31,747 nt of DNA from Catajapyx aquilonaris (taxonomy: Eukaryota), in NCBI GenBank assembly GCA_000934665.2, contig JYFJ02001049.1, positions 62,001 to 93,747 of the forward strand, in the 5' to 3' direction. Each line of letters starts with the position of its first letter. Position 1 is the stretch's first letter. The translations under genes and the position numbers were made by a program. Of the stretch, positions 4,044 to 25,986 are shown piece by piece. Under the pieces are notes generated by a model. The model was not told the DNA's origin. It ran no database searches and was given only the letters and a program-made list of their open reading frames with translations.

Positions 4044-5738
4044 ATGGGTCGTGTGATTCGTGCACAGAGGAAGGGGCGTGGGAGTGTTTTCCTCTCCCAC
4101 AACAAGCACCGCAAGGGAGCGCCCAAGTTCCGCCCCCTTGACTACGCAGAGAGGCATGGCTTCATGAAGGGAATCATCAAGAACATCATCCACGACCCTG
4201 GCCGTGGAGCTCCCTTGGCAGTGGTGCACTTCCGCAACCCGTACAAGTATGGGACCAGGAAGGAGCTGTTCGTTGCCACCGAGGGGATGTACACCGGACA
4301 GTTCATCTTCTGCGGACGAAAGGGTACCTAAGAGAGGATCTTGAAATGTGTAATGCATGAGTAGCTATAATGGTTGTTTGTGGTAGTGTCCCATTTCCAC
4401 AAGGGGTTCTGAGGAATAGTTTTGGTATTGGCAGTTTTAGCTGAATTTACTTGCCACTTGCCATGCAGGAAAATTCCATTTAGGACATGTGACTACATTT
4501 TACCCCTAGCAAAGTTTTGCAGTTGACAAAATGCTGCAGAACCGAGTGTGGTCAATCTCATCCTGAATTCAGATTTGACCCAAATGCAGTGCCTAACAGA
4601 CAACGAAGCAATTGTAGAGCAATGGCTGGCAGAGCAGTTGAAAATTCGAAGAATTTTAAAACTACGGAATATTAGCAATTAATTAAGTTCGTGCTTGGTT
4701 GTCGACCTAGGAAAGCATTGAGTGAAGATATTGAGGTTGCAATATTTTAGTTATTGTTTTATTGTTTTTTGTTTTAAATATAAAAGGAAGATTTTTAAAC
4801 ATGTGTCACGTTCTAAAGGTATTAATTTATCCACAGCCAATCTGCAGATCGGCAATGTGATGCCTGTGGGAATCATGCCCGAGGGTACCATCATCTGCAA
4901 TGTTGAGGAAAAGCCTGGCGATCGTGGCAAGCTGGCACGTGGGTCAGGCAATTATGCCACCATCATTGCCCACAACCCTGAAACCAGGAAGACCCGTGTG
5001 AAGCTCCCCTCAGGGGCAAAGAAGGTCATCCACAGTGCCAATCGCGCCATGGTTGGTGAGTACATTTTGGTGCTATTAGGTCATTCTTGCTGCCATAACA
5101 GATCATTTGGATAGTTCAGTTATTATAAAACCGTAAGCTGGTTGATTGTGTTTAAAAGTAGAAGTCACATTTGTATTCATAGCTGATAGCAAAACGATAT
5201 GTGCATACTGTTCAGACTTTCCAAACCAGCCTTATTTGACAAATATCTTGTTTCATTGCATTTTTAAATAATATGCGCCCTCTCTGACCTTTCCCTTCAT
5301 AGGCTTGGTTGCCTCACCTCTTATCAACAACTTCCCATTCATAATGTTGCATTAATATACAGGATTGAAGGCAATGGCAGCTTGTAATAGATTTGTTATG
5401 TTTTGATTCCTCTGGATGTTATAGCTTCATCCATATCATTATTATTCATAACTTTTGCAGGTGTTGTTGCTGGAGGTGGCCGTATTGACAAACCTGTGTT
5501 GAAGGCTGGCCGCTCCTACCACAAATACAAGGTGAAGCGCAACTGTTGGCCAGTGGTTCGTGGTGTGGCCATGAACCCGGTGGAGCATCCCCATGGTGGT
5601 GGTAACCATCAGCATATCGGAAAGGCATCTACAGTTGCCAGGGGTACCAGTGCAGGGCGTAAGGTCGGCCTTATTGCTGCCAGGAGGACTGGAAGGATCC
5701 GTGGAGGAAAGAAGGAGCGCAAGGATGAAAAGGCATAA
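4044..5738 (+). CDS. RPL8: 60S ribosomal protein L8 (uL2), 258 aa; coding exons 4044-4323, 4837-5055, 5461-5738
   Basis: [11 protein letters not shown]...[12 protein letters not shown]...[22 protein letters not shown]...[10 protein letters not shown] are uL2 motifs. Both introns are phase-1 GT-AG, the CDS is 777 nt, and AATAAA lies at 5757-5762. Confidence 0.98.
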
Positions 5739-6249: not shown

Positions 6250-7021
6250 TCACTTAATATTTCTTTGCACTCGACGAGTATATTGGCCACGGGCTTCCAT
6301 CAAGGCCCCCTCCAGAACCTGTGTCATATGCTGCAGGTTACGAGGATCAGTCTGAAGAATCACATTCTCTCGTCCATTGAGTTGTGTTTCTAGGCCCAGT
6401 TGGAATGTGATGACAGGTTCCAGCTGATGTTGAAGTGAGCGGGATGCAACTTGGACCTCTGTCCTCCAGTCAAGGTCTGCATAGTGGGGGACATCTGGAA
6501 CAGGCACATGTCGCAGTGCACGTTGTATTCCATCCTTGTTCATGACAAAGTGTTGAACAACAACTTTTTGCTGCTCCTCATCAAATCCCAGAGAAATTAG
6601 AGTTCCCTCCATATCCCCATCAGAAGAGTCCCCACAGCAGCCAAGAGTAAGCAGATGAGACATGCCTTCCACTCCACGGCTCACCTTCTCCACTTCACAT
6701 CCAAGTTTGTCTGGAAAAGGTATTGCAGTGTTGCATTTCATTGCCAAGTATGTATTGAGTAAGCCATTCATTAACAACTGCAATAAATGTTAACATTTGG
6801 AGTGGCCATGCACTTCAATTTTACCTGGGACCTCCCCCTTCCCCAGTCAATGAATATCACGCAGAATGATGCTACTTACGTGCGGCATTCTGGTATGCTT
6901 TAGGATTGGTCCCATTCCTGAGGGTGTCCACTGCCATCTTGCAGAAGCTGTCCAGCACGTCAGGTGGCAGTGTGGCAACATACTCCAAGTGCTCTTTGTG
7001 ATTGTCCCGTAAGATCAACAT
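6250..7021 (-). CDS. COMMD2: COMM domain-containing protein 2, 200 aa; coding exons 6880-7021 and 6250-6710
   Basis: The N-terminus MLILRDNHKEHLEYV...GTNPKAYQNAAHKL...GVEGMSHLLT and the COMM domain PHYADLDWRTEVQVASRSL...LQTDPRNLQHMTQVLEGALME match COMMD2. Phase-1 GT-AG intron; minus-strand AATAAA at 6184-6189. Confidence 0.93.
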
Positions 7022-7098: not shown

Positions 7099-8141
7099 CT
7101 AGCTGAACCGTGGTCGAGTGCCAAAGACCCCTGCTCTGGCGAGGCTGGCCACGAAGTTGTAGGTGACCAGAAACACTAAGACTAAGAGGAAGGCCTGGAA
7201 GAGGAATTCCAACCAGTCGAAGGTGTCCGACGACTGTCCGTCACTGGATGCGGAGGGCCCCTCTGCTGCAGGTGGTTCGCTCGCTGCAGATGGTTGGCTC
7301 GCTGCAGGTGGTTGGCTCACCTGAGCCTGCTTCGGGGCAGACTTTGCGGTAGACTTAGAGCCGCGCGAGGAGCTGCGCCCCGCCGCCTCCTGCACCCCTC
7401 TGCCCGGTCTGCCGCCAACTCCTCCTCCGGGCGCACTCCTACCCCGGGCAGGGCACCAAAGTGTTAATCCCAGTGTTTAGTTTTAAGCGGGGGAGTTTAA
7501 GGGAGATTATTCTGCGGCCGATCTCAAACGAAGCTTGCGAAAGGAGGCGGACATGATGGATAAATCGGGGCTGGTCATAGCATAGCAGTTATTTGCAATC
7601 CCATGTACTGTATTTTACGACACAAGTGTGTGACTTACGGTGGTGGGAAGATCACGTTCAGTGACGGGTCATGGTCCAGATCCATGCCATGATGATCTCT
7701 GAAGTAGGGCGGTTGTCCATATCCAACTTGAATCCCACGGTCTAATCTCACGACTGGCTGTTCTTGTTGTTGCTGCTGCAGCTCCAGCTGCTGTGCGCCT
7801 CGCCCTGAAGACCACATCCCGCAGCAGTCAATCCAGTCATTGACATGCTGGTTCTGATGTGGGGGAAGCTGCTGGTTCTGATGTGGGGGAAGCTGCTGGT
7901 TCTGATGTGGGGGATAAAGCTGCTGGTTCTGATGTGGGGGAAGCTGCTGAGCCTGAGGTGGGGGGTGGTGGTGGTGGTGGTAGTAGTGTTGGTAAAAATC
8001 TCTGTGTGCATCTTCTTCCTGGTGGGTGGGTGTGACGTGCGGCTGCGGTGGATCATTACGGATCCCAGCGTAGCGTTTGAATTCTGCGGAGAGAGCCTCA
8101 GGAGGAGTCACGGGTCTCTCGTTCACCGTTCGACGACGCAT
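7099..8141 (-). CDS. Hypothetical ~280-aa low-complexity (Q/H/P-rich) protein with one C-terminal transmembrane helix; exons 7639-8141 and 7099-7438
   Basis: The two listed ORFs (7635-8222 and 7099-7395) join in frame through a gtaagt donor (7638) and the first AG after a branch-like ctaaac (7440-7439), in phase 2. The ATG at 8141 is in an aaacATG context. The hydrophobic segment FDWLEFLFQAFLLVLVFLVTYNFVASLA is followed by a short basic tail. No recognisable family. Confidence 0.6.
7847..7948 (-). repeat. 24-bp coding tandem repeat, about 4 copies, encoding LPPHQNQQ (one copy has an in-frame Tyr insertion)
   Basis: The unit gctggttctgatgtgggggaagct is repeated; the length variant is +3 nt and preserves the frame. 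Confidence 0.9.
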
Positions 8142-8599
8142 GTTTACCCGCCTCCAGCTAGGGCATCGGGTGTTGAGTGTTTGACAGGGTGGTTTCCGCG
8201 GAGACGGGAGAACTGTCTGCACTTTCCAAATCTCCCCGCCATTCCTCTCTGGCCAATAGGCGACGATACCGTATATGTGTTGGCACCACTGGAGAGATAT
8301 GGCGTTGTGTGAGTAGCGGCTATTATTATATTAGTTCCAAATATAAGCAGCTGCTGTTGGATTCTTTTTCCAGTTAATATGCTAATGTACTCACTGCATT
8401 TTGTGCTGCCGTGCATGCTGCATTTATTCTGCTATAGAAAATGCAGGAAGTAACATAGAAGAACGGCTCTTGTGTTGCTGCTTCAACTCTATTAATTAAT
8501 GTTTTCTCTGCTTTGTGCTGTAATAAAATAGCCGCTATGTAATGTAGCAGAAACTAATCAACAGCTTCCACAGCAGCTTCGCTTCTTGAGTTTCATCAG

Positions 8600-8917: not shown

Positions 8918-11900
8918 ATGGGTTCTAACAAAGCAGGCCATGAGGATAATGGATGGAAGAAGGGGGAAGGCATTAGTGAATGGCAATTCCAACGGAAGAC
9001 AGAGAAACTGGACTGGCGGAAACTAGGCACGTATATCACAGTGTAGGATGACTAGATAGGTGGATCAACTGGGCGTTATTGTGCTGGGCTTGGGCTGTCC
9101 TTGATGAATATAATTTCAATGCATGATTTGATATCGAGGGACTCCAGAGAGTACATCGTTGTATGGAAGAAAAAAAAATTTATGCATGCCTGCAAGATAT
9201 AAGTAGTGTGACATCCACCAGATGATACTGCTTACATTTAGTTGCAACCATTTGTGCAATAATCAAAGTTCATTCCTATTGACTAAAATGTGTGTGTGTG
9301 TTTTTTTTAGCTGCTGTCGATGTGGAGAGAATAGTTCGCAACCTGGATGTCCAGACATTGCAAGATAACATGAAGCATGTGACTCTTTGTGACCTGGAAA
9401 GCGAGTTTGATGTGTCAACATTGGATCCCAGTATGGTAAAGCTCTTCCGACTTGCTCAACTGATAATCCAGTACCTACTGCAATGCCAAGAGTTTCTTAC
9501 CACAAGCTTGGCTGCTGAAGAAGAGAAAGCTGTGAAGGCTGCCGAGGTGATACATTAACACACAGTGATTTAATTACTTCAGTTGAATTGATATGATTCA
9601 CTTTTAAAGGAATTTTAGTCGAGATTTTAGTTCTTATTTAAAAATTCATGTAGGCTCTGTGAAAATTTTCAGAAGTACTCAAGAAGCTATGAAAAATGGA
9701 CATTCTCTTGTTTATGCAGCAACCTAGCATGGGGGGGGGGGGGGGGGNGGGGGGAATTTGCATAATACTAGGCCAAGATAATGGTGGGATAGCTTGAAAT
9801 ATACTGATACTTGACAGTATCACAAAAGTGATCCTTATTTATACCCGCAATATCTAACAACAGTACGGTAACTTATTTTGCTAGTGTAGAACATTGACAC
9901 AGTTCGATGAAAATGTAAAACAATATATTGCATGCATAGAACTGGTAGATTGGGAGGACCATGTGTGCTTCTTTTTCAAGCCAAAATTCCCACTCAAATT
10001 TTTTTAGTGCCCAGTAATTTATTGAAAATGGTGTCAAATTTAATTGTAAGAATGTGGGAAGAGATACCATGTGAGGCACAGAAGCAGGGTGCAAAAAATA
10101 CATGTCATGTGTAAACAGAGTGAGAGAATTAGTCTTGGTGTGCTGATCTTAGTTGCCACCTGTCAAAAGTTAATGCTCTTTCTCACAACTGTTGGCATTT
10201 TACACTACCCTTTTTTTCCATGAGGTGAGTCAAGGCAAGTGCGACTTCGGAAAAAAAATCCTACCACGGTATGGGAACACTTTACACGACAGCCCCATAT
10301 GATTGTCCTGTCCTCAGGCAACATATGGCGAAAACATATTCCCGCATTACTGGCTTTGTGTGGCTAGGCGGAGGCGGAACGCGCAACCCTCACATCTCCA
10401 CCTTCAAAAGAAGATCGACGAACTTCGGAAGATAGTTTCTGTAGGTAAACTTCAACATGCTGGGTGTTCTTCGTATTTTTGCATAGTTATGAAGCATTTT
10501 CCAGGAACTTTTCATAGATGTTGTGTAATTAACGATAAGATTATGACGTCACCTTCGAAAGCCTAGGTCGCAGTTGCCCCATGACAATGTGACACTGGGG
10601 CATGTGCACCGATTTCTATGGGGCACATGCGACTTAGAGGTCGCACTTGCCCTGTGTAAGAAATTGTTGTAGTAAAGGAACGTCATATACGCAGGATAAT
10701 TTGGCAGAAGCATGTGATGAGGTTGCTTGAGGTGTGTCTACCGCATACCGTGCTTCCAAGAACTACGGTATTCCAAAGGGGGGACATTGTATGACCACAT
10801 AATTATCAAGAAGGCGAGGAAAGAAGGGATCTGGAGGTGGGCATGGGTGTCTGCATTACTATTTGGAGTGGATTTCTCAGATTGAAATGTGTGCTAAACG
10901 TGTGATTACGGCATTACGCTTACTGAAGAAGTGCTTCTGAGACATACTAACTTATTTTATTCACATGTCAACTCAAACTATGTCATCATCATCATCATTT
11001 ACTTCACGGCAAAATAATCCCATAGAGGGGTAGCCAGCGGAGTACAGGTTGCCCCTGTCCCCCTCGTATGACCTACAAAATGACACTCTGGTGGATGGTC
11101 AGGCCATTAACCTCTGCGTGGCAAACTATGTAACTTGGAGATTTTTTCTTCTCTTAGCATATTCAAGTCTTATGCAGATTTTCATTGAAAGTGGATACTT
11201 TGACGCTGGAAAAAGGTATTTTGATTCGGAAAAGAACTCGAGAAAGGCATACTTCTACCCTAGTCGCCACTTACCTCATTTCCCTTACCCGATGCTCTCC
11301 TGCAAAGACAAGGCCAGTAGTTGCACTTTCCCCATGTTGGGGCAAGTTCCAAATCCATGACACAGTTTTGGGAATAATTCATTTTCAGACAATGGGGAAG
11401 TAGCCTTGGTCTGGGATTTGGGATTTTTGTTCATAACTAGCTAGACCATGCCTGTAAACATACATTCCATCACTTTGTTGCATCAAAATGACATTACTGG
11501 ATAAATTACGGCACATTTAAAAGTGCCTTCAAAATTGTCGGGAAAAATGCCCCGGCCGGGTGGTGCCAATCGAAAGGGTACACTGAAATGCCTGGTTGAC
11601 TGCGAGATATGAGGAATTTGACTTTGAATTAACCGCGGACACGACGGAAAGCATTCGCAAGGAAGCTGTAGGCCATCGAGGTGGAGAAGGGGGGCCTTTA
11701 TGTGCCTAATTCGGGAGACAGATATTTCCGAGCTGGTGGCATCACTGCCACGTACAAAGCGGCTTGAGCGGCCTGGAATCTTGCTCACGGAATGGGACGG
11801 TTGCTAACAACAGCGAAGCATTTTACGACAATGACGGGGCGCGTTCTATAACACCATTTTTACGTTCATTTCACTTCGTGTGACGTCAACATTTTCTAGG

Positions 11901-14900
11901 GAAACAGTGACGTCACCATTTCCCTACATAAAAACCCCAATTACTCCGGAACTGAAACTGATATCTTAAAACGGAATATGCCAAAAAAATCCAAAAAATA
12001 TGGGCGAATTTATTATGTAGTTTCCAAAATGAAGGCTACTTCCCCATTGCAAAACCTTACCACATTGATTTTGTGATCACTAAAAGAGAATTAGTTACTC
12101 TGCACGTGGTTATAAGTTGAGCTTTTTAACAGCTTCCTGAGCGGCACAATCCTCACCCAAAGTCAACCTATGATGTAAAACAGGGTCGCACTTGCCCCGA
12201 CTCACCTTACTTTTTTTATATAGCACATATGAGCATATTTAAATGTATGTGCGAGACTAAATGTAGGAGCTAAGTAAGTCAGGAACTGTCCCTATTAGGT
12301 ATTTAGCATGCTGATGAATAATTGTACTTACGTTCAGACTGAAGGGTGATGTAAAAAGGTCTATTAGAATTTTCTAAGTCAATTCTTACCTCCCCACATA
12401 ACATTAGTGTCATTTTAATAATATCCACAACTGTTTACAGGATCTGGCCATTGTGTTGCAAGACAAAAAACAACTAGAAGAGATAGTGAGAGGCTTGCGC
12501 CAGGAGAACAAAAAGCGTCGAAAGATGTTGGCATGGCATCAGTCCACCTTTGCATCTGGTGATTGCAATAAAAAACAAGATGGAGGAAATAACATAAAGG
12601 AAATTGTGGTCCACTGTCCTTACTGTCCAAAGGCCTTCCTTGCCACCAACTTTCTGTTCATACATTGTGCCAGGCGGCACCCTGATCGTAGCCCACCTGT
12701 AATATCTGTGCCAATTCAGCCTATATTATCAAGTAACAACAGTGCAGTGGAGTTAGGGGAGGAGGTGATAAATCCACTTGAGAAGGAAGTACAGGAGCTG
12801 AGAAAGAAGCTGAGGTATGCTGAAAATAAGGCATTGGATGAAGGCATGCATCAGCAGGTAGGAACACATTTTAAAAATATAAGTCATCAATTTGTTTGAA
12901 TGTTTAATTATTAACCTTTGTTGTCATAGAAGGGTAAGGAGGAAATTGAGAGGGAGAGGATGAAGATGAGCTTGGAGCAATTGAGACTGGATCTTGAAAA
13001 AAAGCATCAGGAGGAGATAATGAACTTGAAAGACATGTTTCATGAAGAAGTGCAGGTAAGGTGGAGTGGTTGGATTTTTACTGTCTTCATTGTCACTTAC
13101 ATAGAGCTTAATAATTATGTATATTTTGTGTCTATTTTGTAAATGAAACAGATTAATATTTTTGCACATTATGTGCTTTGCATGGACAGTCTTGATTTTG
13201 TACAGTGAAATCTGTTTATAAGGAACCCTGCATGCAGTCCATGCATGTCCATGGGCTGATTTTGCTTGGTCTGAGAATGAAAATTTCAATGCACATGGGT
13301 TGCACCAGAAGTCATGGCATATGTTTTTAAATATTAACTCAGTTTTTAGCTTAGCCTTTAAGGATTAAGGATGGTTTATACTCTCGGGTAAGGGCCACGT
13401 AGTCAGAGTAGCAGCTTAAGAATAGAAGACCAAGTGGTTTATAGTTCTTACAAAGTAGCCTACTTCCCAAGCTACTGTCACGATTTGCAAGCCATCGCAT
13501 ATGTCGAAAGTGCTTGCACGCTTTCTGACCAGGTTTCCCCCCCCCCTATACAAATCACCTTTATAAAGTAATGTCCATTGAACTCTGCAGTGTCTACATT
13601 GCATGACCAAAACTGGTCTTAGTCCAAAAGAATGCCTCTCAATCATTTATTTTGACATACTCAACCTATAGACATGGAGTTGTGGATTAATTGTTGAACA
13701 CTGCCCGTCGCACATCCCGCCAGACCTGTCAAGGACACTTTTTAAAAACTTCAATTATTGTACATTTTAAAATGCCCATGGACCACACTGCAGACAAAAT
13801 CATCATGAGTGCAATTTTTTTTTGCATAAAAATAGGCACAACACCAATAGGGCAATCAAATGTACTATATCGCTCAAAAAGATAGAGACGATTGGCATTT
13901 GATTCAAGTGCAAGTTGCACTTGAGTCAAATGCAAAATCGTCTCTATCTTTTTGGGCGATATAGTACTTTGCAGGTTTTTTCAAATATTCATTGATGATG
14001 ATGATGATGATGGTGATAACACACCTAAAAAAATAATTAGAGTAATACCAAGGTGGGCAGAGAAGTTATAACTCACAAGGGAATGACCAAGGGTGGTAGC
14101 CTCTGATTTGACTGAAACTTGGTTGAGGGGTCAATCATGGCACACAGTGGTGAAGGTCCTAGACTGCGACTTTCAGACATTTCCGAGATATGAGCAATTG
14201 AAACATCCGAATTTTGGCTGCGCGTACAGGGTTCGGGCAGGAAAAGGACAAGTTCAAGGTCCCTGTACCCCTATACACACAGACAAAATTAGGGTGTTCC
14301 CATCGCTCATATCTCAGAAACGGCTGAACCACTGTATTTATGGCACATGATTGATCGCTCATGGGGGAGGTGTGGTGGCCGAGATGGTAACGTCTCGGCT
14401 TGCTGAGTGGAAGGTCCCAGGTTCGATCCCCGCCTGGGAGTTCCCTTCCACCTGCGTCAGGAGGGTCTCTGACCTGCACCAAGGAGGTGTCTGGCAACCT
14501 AACCTCCTGGGGAACAGCACATGGCCCCTTTTCAGACAATGCACTCGCACCCATGTTCCCTCCCCAAAAATCCCTTATCCTTACTTAATGTCCTTGTTTC
14601 CCTGCACTGGAGTGAAGATAAAATTAGAAAATTGATTGAAAAATGGTGGTGTACCATCCCTTATAGAACCCGTCATCATGGGGTACAAAAAAATAAAAAA
14701 TAACAAAATAAAAAACTGATCGCTCATGCATGTTTCAGCCAAATCGGAGGCTACCACCCTTGGTCATTCCCTTGTCAGATCTTTTGTGCACTCGGGTTTA
14801 TTTCTCATGAAATAGTGGAAATGGAACATATGCCCAACAATAATAATGACATTTTCATGTGTTTGGTAGGCCAAAACATTTTTTAGATTGGAGTTGCTCA

Positions 14901-17900
14901 AATGTATTGTAGCTGACTAATATGTAGGGAACCATCCACAAATGTACAGAGTCATGTTCAGACATGCAGACTAGCAAAGGATTTCAGTATTATGTAGTCC
15001 AGCAATCTAGCTGGTAAAAGTGAAGTTTGTGAGTGGGGAGGGGGAGGCATCAGAATTTTCATTTTACCAGCCAGACTAGTTAACGCAGTTTTCTGTTGCA
15101 AGTCTACATTTCTTAAAGATACAGTGTGTGAAGTGTAACAACATTTTGGAATACATTAATTTTATGAAATAATTATATTGAGGGCTACTGCTACCTGGTG
15201 GATCTGATCGTACAATAGACAAAAAAGTGATTCAAAAGGGATAGCTTTATTAACTTTAAGCTCTTGATTGATCAACTGTCACGTGCTCGTCATTTTGTGC
15301 AAAGTGACTTGTATGATGTCTTACCAGGGGAATTGTTTAGTTGCAAACTCCTCAGTTGCATATAAATTGCAAAGCTGTGCTTCCTGTGGGGTCTCTTCCA
15401 TTATTGACCATAATGTTTCTTCTCATATATCCTAACCTTGAAGCGAATCCCTTTCTCCTCATGCCAGCCTTGCAAGGCCCTCTCATCTACCACTGACACA
15501 AAATCATCTTCTTGAAACTTTGGAAAAAATGTGTCACATTTAAAAGTTGCATTTATGTGTGTGAGATACATGCGGTGCAAGTAGGGACTCTCTAGTGCCA
15601 GTTTGTATATTTCAGATCCTCCATGAACCCATATTGTTTCCACATGTTTGAGCCTATTACACACTTCCAGTGCCTCTCCTAGGCTTCCAACCCAGTGTAC
15701 ATCTTTATTTATGTATGCAGGTCTTGAAGAGTGGCTTATCACAATGTTCAGGGTGTTCGGAAAGGGTTGCAGGTCCAAATCTTTGAGCGTGTCCCATGTC
15801 CGACGTCCAAATATAGCTGCATTTTGCTTTCTTGAGTCAGTGGTGGAAGTAGTGAGATGGAGATAGTGTTCCCAGTCTTTAGTGAGGTGCCAGGGAAGGG
15901 CCTGATCACGGCCAATACCTCTCTCAGAATCCAATGCTGCTATTATGTTCATTTCTATAGATGTATCTACCAAATAGTGATTGTGTGATATTATTTTCAT
16001 TTTTCTTCATGGTGAAAATAAATAACTAGGTAGAATGCTGGGAAAGTATTTGAGCATGTCATGAGGCATAATATTTTACAGTCAGGAGTGGCCAAGAATG
16101 GTACAAAAGCTAAAAATGAAGGAAAGGTCAAAGCATGGTTATTTTTTGCCACTTTCAGTGGAATTTTAAAGTTTATGTGTTTGATAATAGTATTTCTTCA
16201 ATGGGCATTATGATCGTTGATCTTGTTCATACCATTTATTCATATTTAAGCTTGCATCATAGAAGACTATTTAAAAACTCCATATGAATAATGAATGTAT
16301 TAGGTAGCACTTCATGTATGCTTACTTTATAGCTAGTGCAATGCAACAAAATAAGATTCCTTACCTTGCTGTTGTGTAGTCCCAGTTGGCCTTGGCTAGA
16401 AAGGAAGGCCCCTTCACTCCTGCTTGATTCTAAAGGTGAATGTGAAAAGGAAAGTGGAGGGGAAAACTGCTTGGCAGGAGGGCAGAGGGGAGGGGAGAGT
16501 CGGTTTTCTTCTCTTTTGTAATCCCTTATAGTGGCTTGATCTGCCATTGGTTCAATTAAGTGCTTGGGGGCAAGTAGACATCCTGTTTTAAATGAGTTCC
16601 CAGAATAAGTATCATGTGAACAGCAAAACCTTTACTTGTGCAAATCATACCTTAGGGTTAAGATTTTTTTCTCTCTAATTGGCCACCATAATTTCTTGCA
16701 ATTGAATGATTCAGCGACACTCATAGTTTGAATAGTGGGATAATTTTATTATCTTATCTTTATTTTGATAAATGGCATATCTTACAATGATTTCTAGACA
16801 TTTTTCCTTATTTGTTGAAAGACTTTCGCAAGTCTTTGAAAGGGCAGACAGTGACATCTGTTCAGTTCTTGTACCCTATTTAACTTTATTTGGTGTTAAG
16901 ACCACTACTACTACCTACTTACCACAAATGGGATATAGAGGTATATCTGCAATTTGCCAGCTCATACGTGTATTTGTCATGTAATATTCCGGATTAAAGA
17001 TGAAATGAGTAGGAAATCCATAACCTAATCATCATTGCAGCACAAAAGATGATCCTGTAAAAGGCCCAAGGTGGCCTATCATGGGGTATCCATCATCATT
17101 ATTATTATCATTGCAGCACTTAATTTGAGGGCTGTTACAGTGGTCCTTGGACTTACACCATAATACTGTACATACTGATGACAGTCTCATGGTTTCTTTT
17201 TAATGAACTTGGTTCATCAGTTTGAACATTTTGAAAACATGGTGCCTTTGTGGACATTGGTAATACTAGTACTGTACTGTAACACTGTAAGTAACATTTG
17301 ATTTATTCTCTGAATGATTGTTGCCTGAACTTCTATTTCAGAAAATTCAGGACAAGGTTGGCAGTATGACACCTCAGAGCATTTCTCCTCGCCTGGGAGA
17401 CCAACCAGACCTTGTAGATAAGCTGCATCAGCAAGATCTGGAAATACGCAACTTGCAGGACCAGCTCAAATCTCAGGTAAGTCCTTTCTGACATACTGGT
17501 GGCATGTTTAAATGGGCTACATTTATTTTTTGGGGTGCTAATTGAAGGAGGCCAGGAGGTGAACATGGGGCTCATCAAGGGACTGTAAAAAGAAAGAAGA
17601 AAAAAAAAGAGAGGATGTGAAAAGCAGGATGGTGTTACATGTGGGAGCATTATATGGAGGTTTTACTGTATTTTAATAATGCTTTGCCATCACGGCTTCG
17701 GAACAAGAAGGGAGGAAATGGTGGAACCCACTCTTGTGGGATCAGCCGCTTTGCCTGAATTTATGAAAATTTTATTGAGACCAGCATTTCATTACATAAA
17801 ACTGAGCATCTTGGAAAATAGAATCAGTATTTTAGCTCATACCTTGAGTCAATTTTACCGAATCCTGCTAATTTGACTTGTTAATAATTGCCATTATCTG

Positions 17901-20900
17901 CAGCATTGTCAGGGGGGAAGGAGAGAGGAGGAGGGAAAATGAGAGAGAAAGTGCTTAGTGTGACGCCAACAGAAGGATGAGTTATATGCTCTTGGACGAT
18001 TAGGCCATAAGAGGGCCGCATTTCATGCAGATTATTGTGAACTTTGAAAACATTGTGACGCAGTTGTGAGTTGTGTAGTGGGAAGAGGAGATTGTGAGGA
18101 TGAACCAGTGCATTTTTAAGAAGTGAAATTCCTTCGACAACATTTTTTGAAGTTGTTAATTTTTAATACCATTAATTAATATTAGTGAAAATAGTATCTA
18201 TTTCCTGTTACATTTTTCAATCTTCTCAATATCCATGTAAACTTAGAGGATAAAGTGGATGTTACAGTAAATAAGTTGCACAATTTAGAATGTATCTTAA
18301 TATTGGAATGTGATGAAAACTTTTATTTTCATTATGTGCAATTCATTATACTTGCAATTCTGCCATCCCAAGGGGAAACACCCTAACTCCAAAACTAGTA
18401 GGGGTGAAAGTCACATACATGCCCTGCACTAATCCCCCCTGACTCAGGAGGGATTAGCGCAGGGCATGCCTGCGACTTTAACCCTGACTAGTTTTTCAGA
18501 TAGGGTGTTTCTCCTTGGGATGGCAGAATTAGCATTGGTTTAATGGGCAGTATACCCTGCAGTAATAAATTCAATGTTTAACTCAATACAGCTGAGCAAA
18601 GACCTGGGCAATGTTGAAGGACGACTGGAAGCTCAGGAGCGCTACTGGAAGGCAAAGCTGAAACAAATACAAGATCACCATGCAGCTGACATGCAGCATC
18701 TGAAAGAGACAATGGAAAAGGGTCAGAGAGAAGGTAGGCAATGGTTAGAAACTGTGGTTAATTGTAATCGGTATTATTTTTTGCAAGTAACTTACATTTA
18801 AATGACAGTGTCTAATCTGCAGTCTAGAAGTGAAATTACACATTTAAGGGCAATTTTAAGGCGAAATCTAGGGAAGCAGGCACCAAACTCAATGAAACCA
18901 ATCAAATGAATTTGTTTTTCGGCATGTGTTTTTAAAGATACCAACCAGGGGTGTTGCGAGAAAATTTTGGCAGGATATACTCTAGAAGTGCAAAGGCTTA
19001 ACAAACAGTGTTCTTTCCCCCTCTGGTCAACCAAAAGCATGATTACATACCTGCAATGCTTTACACTGTACATGTTGCAGTATACACACACAACCTTTTT
19101 TTGCTGAATTTTGCTGAACATGAGGCTTCTTGAAGGGGTGTAAGCCATAATGTGTGTGCCATATATACTATAGCCTCACATTTAGATTTTTCTCTGCTGG
19201 GTGTATGTCGCATACCTGTGTACAGTCGGCTCAAGGAGTATGTTACCAGACCCCTAACCTAGAAATTTCTAGGTTAGGGGTCTGGTAACATACTCCTTGA
19301 GCCGACTGTACCCCCTCTGCAACACCCCTGGATACAAACATTTTAGCACCTTTACTCTTATACCATGAAGGTAAATGTTGCTAACTGCATAATTGATTAA
19401 GCCAGTGGTTTCCAACCTTTCTTGAGTCACAACCCCCTTTTATAATAGCAAAATGACCTGCGACACCACCTCATTTGCATAAAATGGCATAACTTGTGCC
19501 TGCCACGCTTGGCACCAAGGCCAGCAAATGGAGATCGGCCCCATCTGGACTTCAGTTGTGACGAGAGTATTACCTTGTAGTACGAGGGCCGTTCCAAAAT
19601 GATTTACAACTTCATTTTACAAATACATGGACCATTGAGGTTGGAAAATAGGCACACATTATTGATAGAATCCTGCTGGAGCCGAAAACACTGGCACCAT
19701 GCGTGTGGCAATTTCCAGGCCCTCCAGGAACCACTTTATGGTGGTGCGGCGCACCCAGTCCTGGACAACTGCTCACAGTCAACAATGTCCTCGAAATGGT
19801 GTCGGCGAAGGATATTATTAAGTGGATCCGAACAGGTGAAATTCACTGGGAGCCAGGTCCGGAAGTATGGTGGGTGTGGAAGCACCCAAAGCCGAATCCA
19901 TGAAAAAATCCCTTTGCCGATGCCATTTTGAGGACATTGTTGACAGTTGTCGACTGTAAGCAGTTGTCTAGGAGTGGGTGCGACGCACCACTAAACCGTA
20001 GTTCCTGGAGGGCCTGGAGAGGTTTCCACACCACATAAATCCTGTGTATTCGGCTCCAGGAGGATTGTATTGATAATGTACACCCATCTGCCGACCTGTG
20101 AGAGCCCTGTATTTTTGGCAATAAAATAAATTGTAAATTATTTTGAAACAGCCCTCATAGAAGATTAATTCAATCTAGACATACTGTATTAAAACACGAA
20201 TGTAAAAAAACCTTCATGGACAAATAATTTCCTGTAAAATTTATTGCAAGTAAAAATTACCGTTACGACTGCGCGACACCCCCGCCCCCCCAGTCACGAC
20301 CCACAGGTTGGAAACCACTGGCTTAAGCAAACATTAATATTGGTATTTACATTTCTAACCATTCCTGTGAAAGAATGACAAGATGTTGCTTCTAACAATT
20401 CTTTTGTAATTCACATGATTGTAATTTATTAATATTGGCATTAATTAATTTCATTACTAATCAAGGGCAAAATGTCATGAATATCAGCTGAAAGAACATG
20501 TGTTGAACTTACAGGTTCACTTGCATCGTCAATGCAAGCCTTGCAGATTAAGGGCCTCCACGAGCAGTCAGTAGAGCAGGAGGCTAAGCTGAGAAATCAG
20601 GAGGAGAAGATTAAAGATCTGATCCACTCCCCACCTACTCTGGAAGGTGTGAACAGAGGCAGCAGTAGTCCTGTTCAGACACCACGCGCAGCCACATCCA
20701 CCAGTGAATCCCAGGAGTCATCACCCAAGTTGACGAGGGGCAAGGGAAAACCACCATCAGCTGTAGTTAGACAGCAGGTTGTTCACTCCACTCCCAGGAA
20801 TGAGATCCCTGAGCCCAGTGAGTCCAGCATTGAAGCAGTGGATGAAGAAGAAGAAGAAGAAGAGGAAGAGGAAGAAGATGATGAGGAAGACAAGGGGATG

Positions 20901-23900
20901 TCTGTGGCTGAGGAACCAGTTCCATCAAGGTAAAGGATAATTATGTGACATTCATTTTATGTGGTTCAGTTTTGTAAGTCTTGTAAGTTACTTGTTCCAG
21001 TAGTGTATGAAGAAATTATCAATCTTTGAATTCTTAAATACTAAATTATATGGGAGTGTGTATTGCTGTATTTAAATTGTACTTTGAAGTTGGTTTGCAT
21101 GTGATGCTTTTGTGCTGCCTGTCTTGCAGCTGCACTACATAAATTGAAGTTATTTTTGGTGGAGCCATTATGTAGCATATGCTTAGGGTCACAATTTTGT
21201 TGGATTTGCAGTGAAGCCTGTGTATAGGGGTAGCCAAGGGGGTAAGTCACTCCTCAAAAAAGTGTGCACCAGCTCACTTGAATTGCTCACTGAAGTGAGT
21301 TGCTCTTAAAGCTGAGGGAAGCCATGGAGAGATGCAGAAGGTTGAGAGCCAACAGCCCACAGGGTAGGGACGAAGGTCTCATGCTGCACGTTTTGTAACA
21401 ATAAGTACACCAAAACTGAAAATCAGTCCTCACCGCACGTCACTATGGGCTTCGAGTGCAGCTGTGAGTGTGGATTCCCCCTGCAAAATGCGCATTTGTG
21501 CCATATGACTCACCTGTTGGCTCTCCAGCCCTTCGTGGCTCACCAGTGAGGGTGTACACCGGCTCATTGAAGCGACTACCCCCTTTTGGGTTAGACCATA
21601 AAAATTCTCCATAAGACCCATTCACACAGGCCGTCGACAGTTTTGGTCTTTGGTCACGTTGACGCCGCAGACCAATCATATGAGTGGTCCACGGCGTCAA
21701 CGCAACGAAAGACCAAAACTGTCGACGGCCAAATTCATAGTATACCATCAAACAGGGTGAGATTGTGACACACTTTGAGGTTTTTCTTATAGTAGGGCAG
21801 ATAGGTGAAACAATTGTGCCTTTAATGATAGAAGCATGAAATTTGGCACACTTTTAGACAACACCCTAATGGACGTTTTTGGAAGGGCAGCTATCTCAGA
21901 TTTTTCCTGTAATTAAATTACGAGCCATTTTTCAAAATGGCGACTAGGTGTCATATAAACGTCTTATTTTTTGTAGTTATTTATGTTCGATCATTTATTG
22001 TGGCCATGCGATGACTATTTTTATATATTTTTTAATATTTTTATTTTACGTTACCCCGTGATAAGGCTGAGCCTTTTTAGGGGGGTGGAATACCACCATT
22101 TCACTCCATTTTCATATATTAACTTCATTCACCGGTGCAAGGAGTCAAGGATGTAAGGTAAGGATAGGGATTTTTGAGGAGGGAACATAGGGTGCAAGTG
22201 CAAGGTCTGTAAAGGGGTCATGTGCTGTTCCCCAGGTGGTTAGGTTGCCAGACACCTCCTTGGTGCAGGTCAGAGACCCTCCTGACGCAGGTGAAAGGAA
22301 AGTTCCCCAGGCGGGGATCGAACCTGGGGCCTTTCACTCAGCAAGCCGAGACGTTACCATCACGGCCACCACACCTCCCCCCATGCGATGACTATTAGAA
22401 GTAAAATACACTTTTGAAGTAAAAAATAATTTAAAGTATAATAGTATAGTGTACTGTATAACAATCATAATCATATTCATAATTTATAACATACGAGGCC
22501 CATATCATTCTATTGTAAAATTTTATGGTATCGTTTGCTACCTTTCCCAAATTGCCACTGTGCCCATCAGGGTAATATATAAATATATAAGTAAGTAAAT
22601 AAATACATAAATAAATATCATTTTATTGGGATAGTCAAGTGAAGAAAAATAAACTCCTTCACAACTATTGAGAGTTGTTTATTTGATACTCATGCAGTGT
22701 CTTGGATTACTAATTTTTATTTTATTGTCCATTAAAAACTTTAAAATCAAGCATCAACAAAAATTAATTTTACAGGCCTAATAACACCAAGTCGCGAATT
22801 TCATTTGCCATTGCCAACCTCGTTCATCCTTCAATGTAGTGAAACATGTCTACATTCGCTAGTTTACATCTGCTCCCAGTAGGGCACAGTGTTGTCCAAA
22901 AAATGTACTGGTACAATCTCACCACATTTGACGGGTATTTATGAAAATAAAACCCTTGCTCTTATTGAATAATTTTTTAACTGTTTAGTTTTTACTGTAT
23001 ACATACTAACTAACCATACTAACTAACGTGGTGGGGAATACTACCCCGCCACAATTTTTTCCACACTACCAGAGACAGTTTCGCCCCCAAATTTGCCGCC
23101 CCTAAAAATTTGCTGCTCTAGGCAGTTGCCTACTTTGCCTAAATTGGGAAATATGGCCGTGGCTGTTCCCTAATTGTCACAACTTCATTCTTTTCCCAGA
23201 ATTAATGCAGTACAAATATAGCAAAATATAATGGATAAGTTATTCTTTATGAAGAAGGGCTTGTAATTCTTTCAAGAAAACTTTATTTTGTCATTGGGTA
23301 AAGTATTCAGTATTTTGTGATTAGTATTACTCTAACAGTTTCAGGACTATGACCCCAAAAGCAACCCCACAAAAAGCAACAGTTGAGGTTCCTGAAGGGA
23401 GTTCGAAATCTTTGAAAGCATTGCGAAAATCTGCAAACCAAAACCTGTCACCTCATCTGAAGAGATTTGGCATTTCACCAAATGAAACCCACCTTAGTGC
23501 CTCCAGAAAGAAAGAAGTGGTGAAGAAGCTGCAGAAGGAGAGGGACAAAATAAGTCAGGTATAGCCTGTGTACCTAATTTTAATGTAATATTCTCAGTGA
23601 TGAGAATGACGTAGTGATTGAGGACCTTTACCGTAGTGCCTGTTGCACATTATGCAGTGAGTCCAAGATCTAGAGATATTTTTGTAGTTTTGTGTACTTT
23701 ACTTTGTATTGACACTAGTGGTGAGTTTAAAATCATAACATTTTGGCTGTTGGTCAGTGTTATTAATGTTATTAATTTCAATGTTGGGTAGCAATATCCA
23801 GAATACAGACACATTCGCACCCAGCTGGAAAAACAAGTAAATGCCAGGGTGCAAGAGAAGTTATGGGAACAGGCTGACAACCAACCATTTCAAAAAAGGA

Positions 23901-25986
23901 GCCCTTTAAAGAAGCTGATGACCATTGTCAAGAAGAAGTCGAAAGAATTCACCAAGTCACCTTCACCCAGAGGTGAGTCTCTTCACTATTTCCTATTTGC
24001 AAATACAATAATAACTATTATAATGATGATGATGATGATGCAGGAAGGAGTGGAAAAGTGCACCTGGAGACACCAAAGCAGACTAAGTCATCACCAGTCA
24101 AAACAGCTCCACATTCTGCCCCACCTATTATCCGCAGTAAAAGTCAACTGGAGAGGAAAACTGGTCCAAAGTGAGTTGTAGAACTTATCTACTGGATAAA
24201 ATTAAGGAAATGCACAGGATAATATATTTAAAAGCTTGTGTAACAGGCTTTTGCTCTTATTATTGAACCAATGAAGCAAAATATTGATGTTATTTCAGTT
24301 TGGTCTTTCATTTCTGGCTGCAGTAGCCTACTGGCTGATATTAGATAATTACCTTTTTGATGTATGATTATTTTTATTTATGACATTAATATTTATGTTT
24401 GCAATTGCAGGAAGAGCGTGTCAATGGTTCTTCCGCCAAAGGACACAAAAATGAGTTTGGAAAGGGAAGAGTCCAGTAGTGAGTCATATGAGAGTGACTT
24501 GGGCACAAAGCAGGCACCCAATGAGACGATCTCAAACTTGAGTCCCCAGAGAAGGAAGGCTGTGGTCAGAAACCTACTTCCCAGCTTTGAGCAAGTTTCT
24601 GCAGAAGTGGAGCAACAGGAAGATATCCGCAGAGGAAAATCACATTCCAGGTTAGTTCAATAATTTGTACTGGAAAAGTCCTCAAAAAAATGACTGTGTG
24701 TTTCAGTTGGGGTATTATTTGTATTATATTGATTGAGGATTTTTTGCTAACTGAGGCTAAGTGAACTAAGTTTCAAGGTTTTTCTTCCTTAGTTTCATTG
24801 TACAGGGCGTTTGGCCTAGCTGATGATCCAAGGAGGGGAGATGGAGGAGTGTTGATGGATTAGTCACTCTTTGGCCATGGTGTAACCCCACCTCAGACTC
24901 AGCACATGATTTTGGTCTCCCTTTACCATTTTGAAGCAGCTGACTTGTTTATATTTCCAAGGGTGACTAATGCATCAGCTCTTCCATTTCCTCCCTCTTC
25001 AGATTGTTCACTTACGCAGAGAAACATCTGTCCGCATGTATAAATTTATTTTAAGAGCCAGCCGGCCATCTCTCCCCCATAAAGAGATATGACGCCAATG
25101 AAGTAATTTGATTACTGACCTTGAGAGCTCTCATATCTTCATTTTAAAAATCTATTTCAGCTTAGCGGACATGCAGAATATTCCAGACCTGCCAGATGAT
25201 AATATAAAATTGAAGAAGCCGTCACCTGGTTCAAAGGTGGCTGAGCTAAGCAGAACTATAGAGGAACAGTTGAGTGGACCACGAAAAAAGCCTGCTGGAG
25301 GAGTAAACGTGATGGAAAATGAAGAATACCAACCACCACGTGACATCTCCCTACCTGCCCGAAAAGAGACTAGTAAAGATAATGATGACGATGATGATGA
25401 TTCCTTCTCATTTCCTTCATTTGATGAGCCATATCAACCTAAGAGGTGAGCATCTGCAATCATGTTCCAACTTTATGAAGAGAGCATTTGGAATTTGATT
25501 TTTGAAGCTTTCCTTACATGAAATGGAACTAATTTTATAAAGTTAGATTCTTAGCTGCAATGAGTAAGACATTTCCAATTACAAGTTAGTTATGTTTAGT
25601 AAGTTGACTTACGTTTATGTATAGTCAGTATGCTGTGGGGAGTACAGTAATAGCTGGCACCTTATTATTAATAAGCAAATTGGATACAAGAAAACTACTC
25701 ATCATAAGTTCAATGAATATGTAGTACCGCTTATGTTCTAGAAATAAGACACAATAAGATCCAACTAAGCAATCAATGTACTTGTCCCAGGGCATCATCA
25801 GCGCATTCCACCAACACCCTTGGCACCAGCAAGTGGGGATCGACCTCCGAGATGGGGCAGGAAACCCTCTCAGGCACTACCCCTGCAAGTGGAAAGCCAC
25901 CAGTGCCTAAGCCCAGATTCTTGGGTAGACAAAAAGGGTCCTGGGACTCAGACTCAGACTTTGACATCAGTGATGTTATAGAATAA
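8918..25986 (+). CDS. DZIP1: DZIP1/Iguana-family C2H2 zinc finger and coiled-coil ciliary basal-body protein, ~942 aa; coding exons 8918-9026, 9311-9546, 12441-12857, 12930-13055, 17342-17476, 18592-18733, 20515-20929, 23339-23558, 23792-23972, 24044-24170, 24411-24650, 25161-25445, 25791-25986
   Basis: Dzip-like N-terminal domain (WQFQRKTEKLDWRKLAAVDVERIVRNLDVQTLQDNM...LDPSMVKLFRLAQLIIQYLL), one C2H2 finger CPYCPKAFLATNFLFIHCARRH, coiled coils, and a C-terminus ending WDSDSDFDISDVIE*. All 12 splice phases are mutually consistent (2829 nt). AATAAA at 26378-26383. The exon 8 acceptor could alternatively be 6 nt downstream. Confidence 0.9.
10674..10803 (+). pseudogene. Decayed transposase N-terminal pipsqueak-type HTH fragment
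   Basis: Translates as KGTSYTQDNLAEACDEVA*GVSTAYRASKNYGIPKG, then after a frameshift in a G6 run TLYDHI. This fits the HTH_psq pattern Y..E.L..A...V..G......A...YGIP..TL.D. Confidence 0.7.
10984..11121 (-). mobile_element. 5'-truncated non-LTR retroposon (SINE/LINE 3' end) with an (ATG)n tail
   Basis: A perfect 10-bp direct repeat caaactatgt at 10974-10983 and 11122-11131 brackets the insert, and a (cat)n run abuts the left copy. Confidence 0.7.
11390..12049. mobile_element. Non-autonomous DNA element with perfect 18-bp TIRs, superfamily unassigned
   Basis: caatggggaagtagcctt (11390-11407) and aaggctacttccccattg (12032-12049), with a CpG-rich interior. No clear TSD. Confidence 0.65.
13862..13967. 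repeat. Near-perfect ~106-bp palindrome (fold-back MITE, TA ends)
   Basis: gtactatatcgctcaaaaagatagagacgatt...tgcaagttgca...aatcgtctctatctttttgggcgatatagtac, with about 3 mismatches in the arms. Confidence 0.9.
14076..14774. mobile_element. Non-autonomous DNA transposon (about 40-bp TIR, 3-bp TCA duplication) interrupted by a SINE
   Basis: caagggaatgaccaagggtggtagcctc at the left end, gaggctaccacccttggtcattcccttg at the right end, and tca on both flanks. Confidence 0.8.
14364..14716 (+). mobile_element. tRNA-derived SINE, full length
   Basis: A box tggccgagatgg, B box ggttcgatccc, A-rich tail, 12-bp TSD tgatcgctcatg (14352-14363 and 14717-14728). A second copy lies at 22020-22380. Confidence 0.92.
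15401..15952 (-). CDS. DHFR: Dihydrofolate reductase-family protein (divergent), 183 aa, uninterrupted CDS, antisense within DZIP1 intron 13056-17341
   Basis: Motifs GIG....LPW, KQNA.I.GRRTW, GGSEIY, YLTHI..TF.CDTFFP and EEKGI.F...YEK. The ORF is intact, with an alternative upstream ATG at 16000. Minus-strand AATAAA at 15246-15251. Confidence 0.93.
   Translation of the reverse strand: MNIIAALDSERGIGRDQALPWHLTKDWEHYLHLTTSTTDSRKQNAAIFGRRTWDTLKDLDLQPFPNTLNIVISHSSRPAYINKDVHWVGSLGEALEVCNRLKHVETIWVHGGSEIYKLALESPYLHRMYLTHINATFKCDTFFPKFQEDDFVSVVDERALQGWHEEKGIRFKVRIYEKKHYGQ
18360..18526. mobile_element. Fold-back MITE flanked by AATT
   Basis: aatt-ctgccatcccaagg.gaaacacccta at the left and tagggtgtttc.ccttgggatggcag-aatt at the right; the arms pair almost to the centre. 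Confidence 0.85.
18946..19330. mobile_element. Non-autonomous DNA element with short TIRs and an apparent 9-bp TSD
   Basis: TIRs caggggtgttgc and gcaacacccctg; flanks gataccaac and gatacaaac (1 mismatch). Confidence 0.65.
19220..19311. repeat. Perfect 92-bp spacerless palindrome with Tc1/mariner-like TA-CAGTC ends
   Basis: gtacagtcggctcaaggagtatgttaccagacccctaacctagaaa is followed directly by its exact reverse complement. Confidence 0.95.
19403..20320. mobile_element. Non-autonomous hAT (Charlie-like) element carrying a nested mariner derivative
   Basis: 16-bp TIRs cagtggtttccaacct and aggttggaaaccactg; 8-bp TSD gattaagc / gcttaagc with central TA. Confidence 0.88.
19583..20157. mobile_element. 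Mariner-derived fold-back element made of two inverted transposase 3' ends
   Basis: Ends TA-cgagggccgttccaaaat and attttgaaacagccctca-TA. The minus strand at ~19670-19890 encodes a frameshifted VLPHPPY(S)PDLAPSEFHLFG...HFEDI...VQDWV...WFLEGL..LP..W..C, i.e. the mariner YSPDLAP motif and C-terminus. Confidence 0.85.
20842..20891 (+). repeat. (GAA/GAG/GAT)n coding microsatellite giving a poly-Glu/Asp tract in DZIP1
   Basis: Encodes DEEEEEEEEEEEDDEED. Confidence 0.85.
21629..21730. repeat. ~102-bp imperfect palindrome (MITE-like hairpin)
   Basis: ggccgtcgacagttttggtcttt at the left and aaagaccaaaactgtcgacggcc at the right (23-bp perfect outer stem), plus an inner cgttgacgccg / cggcgtcaacg stem. 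Confidence 0.88.
22020..22380 (-). mobile_element. tRNA-derived SINE, second full-length copy
   Basis: Reverse complement of the 14364-14716 element, with a T-rich tail on the + strand and a 16-bp TSD ccatgcgatgactatt (22004-22019 and 22381-22396). Confidence 0.92.
22556..22891. mobile_element. Small CAC...GTG-ended element (Chapaev/Transib-like)
   Basis: TIRs cactgtgccc and gggcacagtg; flanks ttgc and ttgt; AT-rich interior. Confidence 0.45.

Follow-up and report, generated by a model that had tools for sequence, protein, structure and literature searches.

A dihydrofolate reductase-like gene of Catajapyx aquilonaris that lacks the folate-tail arginine and is predicted to keep the pterin-ring and NADPH half-sites

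A gene encoding a dihydrofolate reductase (DHFR)-like protein was identified on the minus strand at 15401..15952 of a 31,747-nt stretch of the Catajapyx aquilonaris genome (assembly GCA_000934665.2, contig JYFJ02001049.1, positions 62,001 to 93,747), referred to here as the window. Its 183 codons and TAA stop (15403-15401) hold a complete DHFR domain within a single exon in which, as judged from the alignments, the damage is specific: the half-sites for the pterin ring and for reduced nicotinamide adenine dinucleotide phosphate (NADPH) are intact and the subsite for the folate tail has been stripped. The losses include Arg70 (Arg57 in E. coli), which is among the most constant residues of DHFR, a textbook enzyme and drug target. 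We tentatively read the gene as encoding a selected NADPH-dependent reductase that would be a paralog standing beside a canonical DHFR and would prefer unconjugated dihydropterins, a reading drawn from sequence and analogy that we hold to be slightly short of an even call.

The translation scored 108.8 bits with Pfam PF00186 (DHFR_1), for which the cut-off is 25 (E 2.9e-31), and covered profile positions 2-158 of 159. Structure modelling, suggested in an earlier note made from this sequence alone, returned a confident DHFR fold. The AlphaFold2 model, with an alignment of 141 rows as input, had a predicted local distance difference test score (pLDDT) of 97.2 and a predicted template modelling score (pTM) of 0.91, and Foldseek superposed it on W. 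bancrofti DHFR (9oni/8e4f) with a template modelling (TM) score of 0.91 and a root mean square deviation of 1.6 Å and on human DHFR with a TM score of 0.90. The W. bancrofti enzyme was the best solved relative by sequence (HMMER E 3e-36, 37% identity).

The earlier note had aligned the protein to human DHFR by eye and had described a kept catalytic acid and kept NADPH motifs together with a remodelled substrate pocket, a description with which the alignments, the column conservation and the charge of the tail site all agree. Every motif it had listed (GIG, GRRTW, GGS, QPFPNTLN, DWEHYL, IFG, WVHGG and SH) is found in the translation of the minus-strand frame, and the substitutions E30D, F31W, F34Y, Q35L, L67F, R70T and V115H were reproduced by HMMER against solved DHFRs. 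Alignment columns are numbered here by chicken DHFR, whose numbers we take to be the same as the human ones at the positions compared, and residues of the Catajapyx protein by their own positions. Against chicken DHFR (1dr1, E 5e-28) the changes were E30 to D, residue 31 to W, F34 to Y, Q35 to L, M52 to F, L67 to F, K68 to P, R70 to T, R77 to H and V115 to H. Thr67 (codon ACC, 15752..15754) occupied the Arg70 column in two HMMER and two MAFFT alignments, and the surrounding segment F-P-N-T-L-N is without Lys or Arg, so that neither residue stands at or beside this column. The Val115 position is taken by His110 (codon CAT, 15623..15625), a histidine common only to Artemia and two unnamed relatives, P0035 and P0155. 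Glu-32, Arg-72 and Phe-36 of W. bancrofti DHFR aligned by HMMER with Asp26 (codon GAC, 15875..15877; Glu30 in human and chicken), Thr67 and Tyr30, respectively. In the published structure of that enzyme, no side chains other than those of Glu-32 and Arg-72 form hydrogen bonds with folate, Arg-72 binding the folate carboxylate, and the p-aminobenzoyl ring is stacked against Phe-36 (PMC10191325). The same account places Ala at human Gln35, Phe at Asn64 and a disordered Lys at Arg77 in this bona fide DHFR, and the Q35L, N64-position and R77H changes, which the earlier note had counted with the others, are therefore not diagnostic.

The human substrate site, as listed in PMC7435474, comprises Ile7, Glu30, Phe31, Gln35, Ser59, Pro61, Asn64, Arg70 and Val115, and the Catajapyx protein is identical at one of the nine residues so listed, Ile7. 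The active-site carboxylate position, Trp24 and Thr136 are matched by Asp26, Trp21 and Thr131, Thr56 and Tyr121 of canonical DHFR are likewise retained, the NADPH motifs GIG, GRRTW and GGSEIY are present and Ser73 stands at Ser76. The contacts to the p-aminobenzoyl group at Pro61, Leu67 and residue 31 (Phe or Leu) are replaced by Lys, Phe and Trp. Column conservation was counted in an alignment of 141 single-domain proteins, the Catajapyx protein and 140 others. Where conservation in the other DHFRs reached at least 90%, the Catajapyx protein retained 20 of 22 columns, the exceptions being F34Y and R70T, and where it reached at least 80%, 24 of 31. The seven departures (Tyr30, Ala46, Phe48, Thr55, Lys57, Phe64 and Thr67) all lie in folate-site elements and are mostly common to the clade described below. 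Net charge around the folate tail, summed over 13 positions (human/chicken 28, 32, 35, 36, 61-65 with an inserted residue, and 68-70), was -2 in the Catajapyx protein and averaged +4.3 in 56 animal-side rows bearing Arg (mode +5, range -2 to +7, four rows at +1 or below).

The frequency of Arg70 loss was assessed in a library of 1.84 billion cluster representatives, in which 14,336 proteins matched at E ≤0.001 and 18 reached 1e-30. The best 150 of these 14,336 matches and three cluster members supplied 163 domains, which became 158 rows after removal of 5 shorter than 120 aligned residues. Arg was present at the Arg70 column in 143 of the 158 rows and absent from 15. The acid at residue 30 was Asp in 106 of these rows and Glu in 50, and Asp in place of Glu30 is thus the commoner state of the family. 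A word-based search of 5.8 billion protein clusters with the Catajapyx protein gave 38 candidates, none with E ≤0.001, and the ESM Atlas gave generic DHFR clusters only. Single-domain proteins without Arg70 included those of Artemia franciscana (two loci on one chromosome; Cys70, His115 and Phe52), Dryococelus (Ala70), Blattella germanica (Ala70), a weevil (Cys70), a tardigrade (Leu) and a brittle star (Phe), as well as several unnamed Logan, JGI or ENA records. Public annotations of the relatives read 'dihydrofolate reductase', 'dihydrofolate reductase-like' or 'hypothetical protein'.

Phylogenetic placement was based on a main tree (IQ-TREE, LG+C20 with posterior mean site frequencies) of 73 rows, made up of the 66 animal-side rows of a first FastTree, the Catajapyx protein and six added proteins. 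The Catajapyx protein fell within a clade of eight rows, every one without Arg70 (ultrafast bootstrap (UFBoot) 99, Shimodaira-Hasegawa approximate likelihood ratio test (SH-aLRT) 90), the other members being Artemia franciscana, Blattella P0156, Dryococelus and the unnamed P0009, P0035, P0155 and P0157. Two subclades were resolved within it, one with the Catajapyx protein outside Artemia and the pair P0035 and P0155 (96/80) and the other with P0009 outside Dryococelus and the pair Blattella and P0157 (100/98). A quick tree gave the same Arg70-less clade with SH-aLRT 95. The earlier note had asked whether a clade with the R-to-T and V-to-H changes is conserved: loss of Arg70 proved to be the common property of this supported group, whereas the replacing residues vary (T, C, C, C, V, A, A, A) and His at Val115 is found in four of the eight members. 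Phe at Met52 is common to the same four (Catajapyx, Artemia, P0035 and P0155), and six of the eight, the Catajapyx protein among them, have a one-residue insertion before the 66-70 loop. Identity of the Catajapyx protein to its clade relatives (Artemia KAK2719181.1 and XP_065576047.1, Blattella P0156, Dryococelus KAJ8871908.1, P0009, P0035, P0155 and P0157) was 33-42%. It differs from them in having Thr in place of Arg70, where the others have Cys, Val or Ala, and in having no Lys or Arg nearby, and together with Blattella it has the most negative tail site of the clade. Conservation at positions 61, 67 and 70 is 82-91% across the family, but within the clade the residues there change freely. 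The branches inside the clade are long, with the terminal branch of the Catajapyx protein at 1.01 changes per site against a median of 0.75. The P0155 relative (Cys70, His115 and Trp31) is encoded by an uninterrupted GC-rich open reading frame (ORF) with AT-rich flanks on two metagenome contigs (L001:146-772 and L002:90-716), whose coding parts are identical with three differences just past the stop, and the pair is uninformative for the ratio of nonsynonymous to synonymous substitution rates.

The Arg-less state required five changes on the main tree (five to six across bootstrap trees), and Arg70 has therefore been lost repeatedly in DHFR duplicates. The weevil Arg70-less protein nested among Arg-bearing beetle DHFRs in the main tree. 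Beetles with extra DHFR copies were Henosepilachna (P0054 and P0158) and Anthonomus (P0127). One copy of the ladybird Henosepilachna retains Arg70 with a tail-site charge of -1, and the weevil 'DHFR-like' protein Anthonomus P0127 has Cys70, which at the level of sequence suggests that these extra copies represent more independent tail-site remodelling after duplication.

The top matches to the Catajapyx protein by E-value were two-domain DHFR-DHFR proteins of annelids, a bryozoan and unnamed records. These tandem proteins (P0002-P0006 and P0008, with annelid, bryozoan and scallop among the sources) are 329-379 amino acids long, and in all five whose domains are both complete, Arg70 is present in the first and missing from the second. 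The second domain of the scallop protein (Ylistrum XP_060080827.1) is partial only. The lophotrochozoan second domains formed a clade of their own (98/96) apart from that of the Catajapyx protein. Like the Catajapyx protein, the second domains of Paralvinella KAK2164111.1, Lamellibrachia KAI0215959.1 and Watersipora XP_067938869.1 keep the acid and the NADPH motifs and have no Arg70. They differ in being fused to a canonical domain and in having no His115, whereas the Catajapyx gene stands alone. The coexistence of an Arg-less domain with a canonical one in these proteins gives indirect support to paralogy. Neither Arg70-less animal DHFR paralogs nor tandem DHFR-DHFR proteins were described in the full-text literature searched, with subscription journals and supplements outside its scope, and relative to that accessible literature the clade of Arg70-less animal DHFR-like proteins is new.

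The Catajapyx gene is likely a paralog of DHFR, as the tree and the analogy with known duplicates suggest. In the main tree a branchiopod and polyneopteran insects grouped together, with beetles and an ant left outside, as would be expected of an Arg-less lineage that was a paralog older than the insects, and the free variation at positions 61, 67 and 70 together with the long branches of the clade offers further indirect support. Membership in this old Arg70-less clade is the reason that the gene is read as a diverged paralog beside a canonical DHFR, and we infer both the canonical partner gene and expression of the DHFR-like gene. The residues expected to line the nicotinamide and pterin-ring half (Ile4, Ala6, Leu19, Trp21, Asp26, Tyr30, Thr52, Gly111-Gly112, Tyr116 and Thr131) are intact, so the usual chemistry would be expected, with hydride passing from NADPH to C6 of a 7,8-dihydropterin (reduction at C6/N5) whose ring would be anchored by the Asp26 carboxylate. 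The half that grips the p-aminobenzoyl-glutamate tail in all DHFRs studied is dismantled, with Arg70 changed to Thr, the neighbouring basic residues gone and Pro61 and Leu67 replaced, and the bulkier aromatics Trp at 31 and Phe at 67 would lie on the path of the folate tail. Folate polyglutamates and classical antifolates would be expected to bind poorly, and the substrate would most plausibly be 7,8-dihydrobiopterin (BH2) or a related unconjugated dihydropterin, reduced to its tetrahydro form.

Several observations weigh against this reading. In an approximately unbiased (AU) test, holding the polyneopteran Arg-less proteins with the holometabolan Arg-bearing DHFRs cost 28 units of log likelihood with a p-AU of 0.24; as the test was not significant, paralogy is likely but not shown, and orthology with repeated loss of Arg may hold instead. 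Paralogy is read from the tree and from analogy, the bootstrap of the main tree was not fully settled (correlation 0.974), and when 34 folate-site columns were removed the clade was recovered with support lowered to SH-aLRT 80. The variation of the Arg70 replacement (T, C, V or A) and of positions 61 and 67 would fit relaxation equally with a new specificity. P0007, P0009, P0035 and P0155 have a Lys or Arg one to two residues before the lost Arg that is a possible stand-in, although the Catajapyx protein has none. No ortholog with more than 45% identity was found among the 1.84 billion cluster representatives scored.

A wider proposal is that this old arthropod branch of DHFR, paralleled in other invertebrate phyla, is a dedicated reductase of unconjugated 7,8-dihydropterins, carrying out salvage of BH2 to tetrahydrobiopterin (BH4), a step that textbooks assign to DHFR itself, and perhaps steps in pigment formation, with the repeated loss of Arg70 being convergent; we regard this as possible but rather doubtful. 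In insects the reduction of dihydrobiopterin is credited to DHFR (PMC11121863).

The gene might instead encode a working DHFR, as the sole or main copy, in which dihydrofolate is held without the Arg70 clamp by its pterin ring, the stacking aromatic and hydrophobic contacts, and in which insensitivity to antifolates is a side effect. This appears unlikely, if by no means far-fetched. All the catalytic and NADPH residues are kept, as such an enzyme would need, and the clade adjoins the holometabolan Arg-bearing DHFRs in two trees (81; 88), while the arrangement resembling the species tree was not rejected by the AU test described above. That a branchiopod and polyneopterans group with the exclusion of other insects (99/90) is nevertheless as expected for an old paralog. 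The Blattella member is the sole DHFR of that species to surface and is annotated 'Dihydrofolate reductase', although being the only one seen is weak evidence since the searches could not list every DHFR of a species. Tolerance of change in this pocket is documented: a genuine DHFR, that of W. bancrofti, accommodates hydrophobic side chains in place of Q35 and N64 (PMC10191325), and mutations of Phe31, Phe34, Arg70 and Val115 are among the methotrexate-resistance changes of human cell lines (PMC7435474). Against a folate-reducing enzyme stand the retention of Arg in 143 of the 158 rows and the freedom of positions 61, 67 and 70 within a clade whose housekeeping counterparts conserve them, and with a charge of -2 rather than +4.3 the tail site should be repulsive to the polyglutamate chains that folates carry in cells.

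It is quite improbable that the protein is a pseudoenzyme serving in binding or regulation, or that the gene is a retrocopy silenced so recently that its frame is still unbroken. The gene is intronless and lies antisense inside or beside another gene, no close ortholog was found in approximately 15 billion proteins, and the terminal branch is long, all of which would suit such an origin. However, the 20 near-invariant columns retained include the acid, both glycine motifs, Thr56, Tyr121 and Thr136, and at most one of the 22 was changed on the terminal branch of 1.01, for which the probability in the absence of constraint is approximately 9e-9. Compared with Artemia, the Catajapyx protein was identical at 19 of the 22 near-invariant columns and at 57 of the 161 others (binomial 1.9e-5). 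On these sequence comparisons the gene is under selective constraint, although a very recent silencing may have occurred. The losses are gathered in one subsite and are not scattered, the frame is uninterrupted, with a start, a stop and an AATAAA hexamer marking its limits, and the chance of an open frame of 183 codons at the local base composition is about 2e-5. Neither a leftover poly(A) tract nor another mark of recent retrocopying was seen, flanking direct repeats not having been searched for. Acquisition from a virus or bacterium, with the oddities reflecting foreign origin, is very improbable, as the intronless structure, the position of Nucleocytoviricota as the commonest known phylum in the nearest ESM Atlas clusters and the automatic naming of one relative as 'Viral dihydrofolate reductase' are set against best sequence relatives that are animal (37-43% identity), a best viral structure, gammaherpesvirus DHFR, at 33% identity with others at or below 27%, the nesting of the gene among arthropod sequences in the tree, and a depth and flanks that are those of the host genome. 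A shrimp 'HGT dhfr' (horizontal gene transfer) was considered and set aside, being a Vibrio-like gene (PMC3750580) unrelated to the Catajapyx gene.

The preferred reading, a paralogous reductase of unconjugated dihydropterins, was compared with known systems. With canonical DHFR (EC 1.5.1.3; W. bancrofti 8E4F/9ONI, chicken 1DR1 and human 1DRF/1DHF) the Catajapyx protein shares the Pfam family, the fold, the position of the catalytic carboxylate, the GxG and GG motifs and Thr56, Tyr121 and Thr136. It differs in being without Arg70 (Arg-72 in W. bancrofti), Pro61 and Leu67, in a tail-site charge of -2 instead of about +4, and in having His at 115 and Trp at 31. PTR1 of trypanosomatids and FolM of bacteria reduce unconjugated pterins with NADPH beside a DHFR, but these enzymes have the short-chain dehydrogenase fold and not that of DHFR, so the likeness to the Catajapyx protein is one of function only and not of homology. 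Human DHFR2 (DHFRL1) has retained its folate site including Arg70. Like the Catajapyx gene it is an intronless DHFR derivative retained as a second gene, and it is 92% identical to DHFR (PMC10884974), whereas the Catajapyx protein has at most 45% identity to any library match and a rebuilt tail site. DmrA of Methylobacterium extorquens is a DHFR homolog that reduces dihydromethanopterin or dihydrosarcinapterin, with DfrA and DfrB of the same organism reducing dihydrofolate (PMC6193120), and it is thus a precedent for a changed substrate tail in the DHFR lineage. DmrA differs in being bacterial and in acting on a substrate with another long tail instead of none, and it is likened here by description and not by sequence.

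If the preferred reading were true, a fold already studied in great depth would gain a new enzyme activity, and the protein might be the dedicated dihydrobiopterin reductase that is missing from arthropod pterin metabolism. It would show a folate-tail subsite dismantled with catalysis kept, which bears on natural antifolate insensitivity and on selective inhibitor design, and the 'dihydrofolate reductase' annotations of crustaceans and hemimetabolous insects may then misname the function. Were the protein instead the sole DHFR of these animals, it would be equally instructive on the dispensability of Arg70.

The limits of the gene follow from the sequence itself. An ATG in frame further upstream (16000-15998) would add a 16-codon N-terminal extension (15953..16000, minus strand) and give a full ORF of 199 codons at 15401..16000. 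The HMMER alignment of W. bancrofti DHFR begins at the second Met, and 9-14 residues precede the first strand in relatives. Either this upstream ATG or the second in-frame ATG may be the start codon. An in-frame TGA on the minus strand (16007..16009) means that the ORF cannot extend further 5'. An AATAAA hexamer (15246..15251, minus strand), a candidate polyadenylation signal by consensus match only, lies 149 nt 3' of the stop. No run of A followed it and no poly(A) remnant was seen, flanking direct repeats not having been part of the search.

The DHFR-like ORF was the sole DHFR locus in the window, both in a six-frame profile scan (E 6.1e-68, with the runner-up at E 0.24) and in a tblastn search with eight DHFRs. 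A 23-residue look-alike at 13852-13917 (minus strand), 1.5 kb downstream of the ORF, was rejected as a second DHFR relic. It shows 48% identity with residues 117-139 of the Catajapyx protein (tblastn E approximately 0.5-1, pairwise E 0.001) and was judged to be a chance match because it lies inside a high-copy repeat and is missing from the profile scan. In contigs of a DNA run, word depth was approximately 38 across the DHFR-like ORF and 30-40 in the unique flanks, and the gene is therefore single-copy; the neighbouring repeat reached a depth of 254,000 in the same run. Very high-copy repeats were located at 14303-14669, 11367-12100 and 13569-14302 with depths of 23,000-254,000 against about 35 in unique sequence and with many contig joints. 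The X5 run, from a second sample, gave low-depth DNA-like contigs in which 15379-15966 was identical to the window, and consequently neither transcript ends nor polymorphism could be drawn from it. Rfam and tandem-repeat scans around the locus gave no match.

The window has a eukaryotic character, with few ORFs, split genes and about 40% G+C. A DZIP1-like gene on the plus strand (9283..12896) comprises a Dzip-like_N exon at 9283-9555 (Pfam PF13815, E 2.3e-24) and, at 12408-12896, an ORF that is C2H2-like. Downstream of these two ORFs and antisense to them, the DHFR-like ORF, on the sequence, probably sits within an intron of the DZIP1-like gene, because the plus-strand ORFs at 20481-20930 and 25102-25446, neither of which had a Pfam match, are taken as later DZIP1-like exons. 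Upstream of the DHFR-like locus are ribosomal protein uL2/RPL8 exons (4722-5111 and 5391-5735, plus strand). A COMM-domain exon is located at 6253-6783 (minus strand), with cockroach COMMD2 as the best named relative at 46% identity and an unnamed Logan protein at 63%. Taken with the DHFR tree, the cockroach relative points to, though does not prove, an arthropod host. A minus-strand ORF of 195 amino acids at 7635-8222 is rich in His, Gln and Pro with repeated PPHQNQQL units and had no Pfam match. A further minus-strand ORF of 204 amino acids at 28442-29056 consists mostly of YSPTSPS-type heptads with an acidic tail at its end (Pfam RNA_pol_Rpb1_R, E 4e-7). No further Rpb1 domain was found in the few neighbouring ORFs scanned, and by its sequence the ORF may be either an exon resembling the C-terminal domain of RNA polymerase II or a retrocopy.

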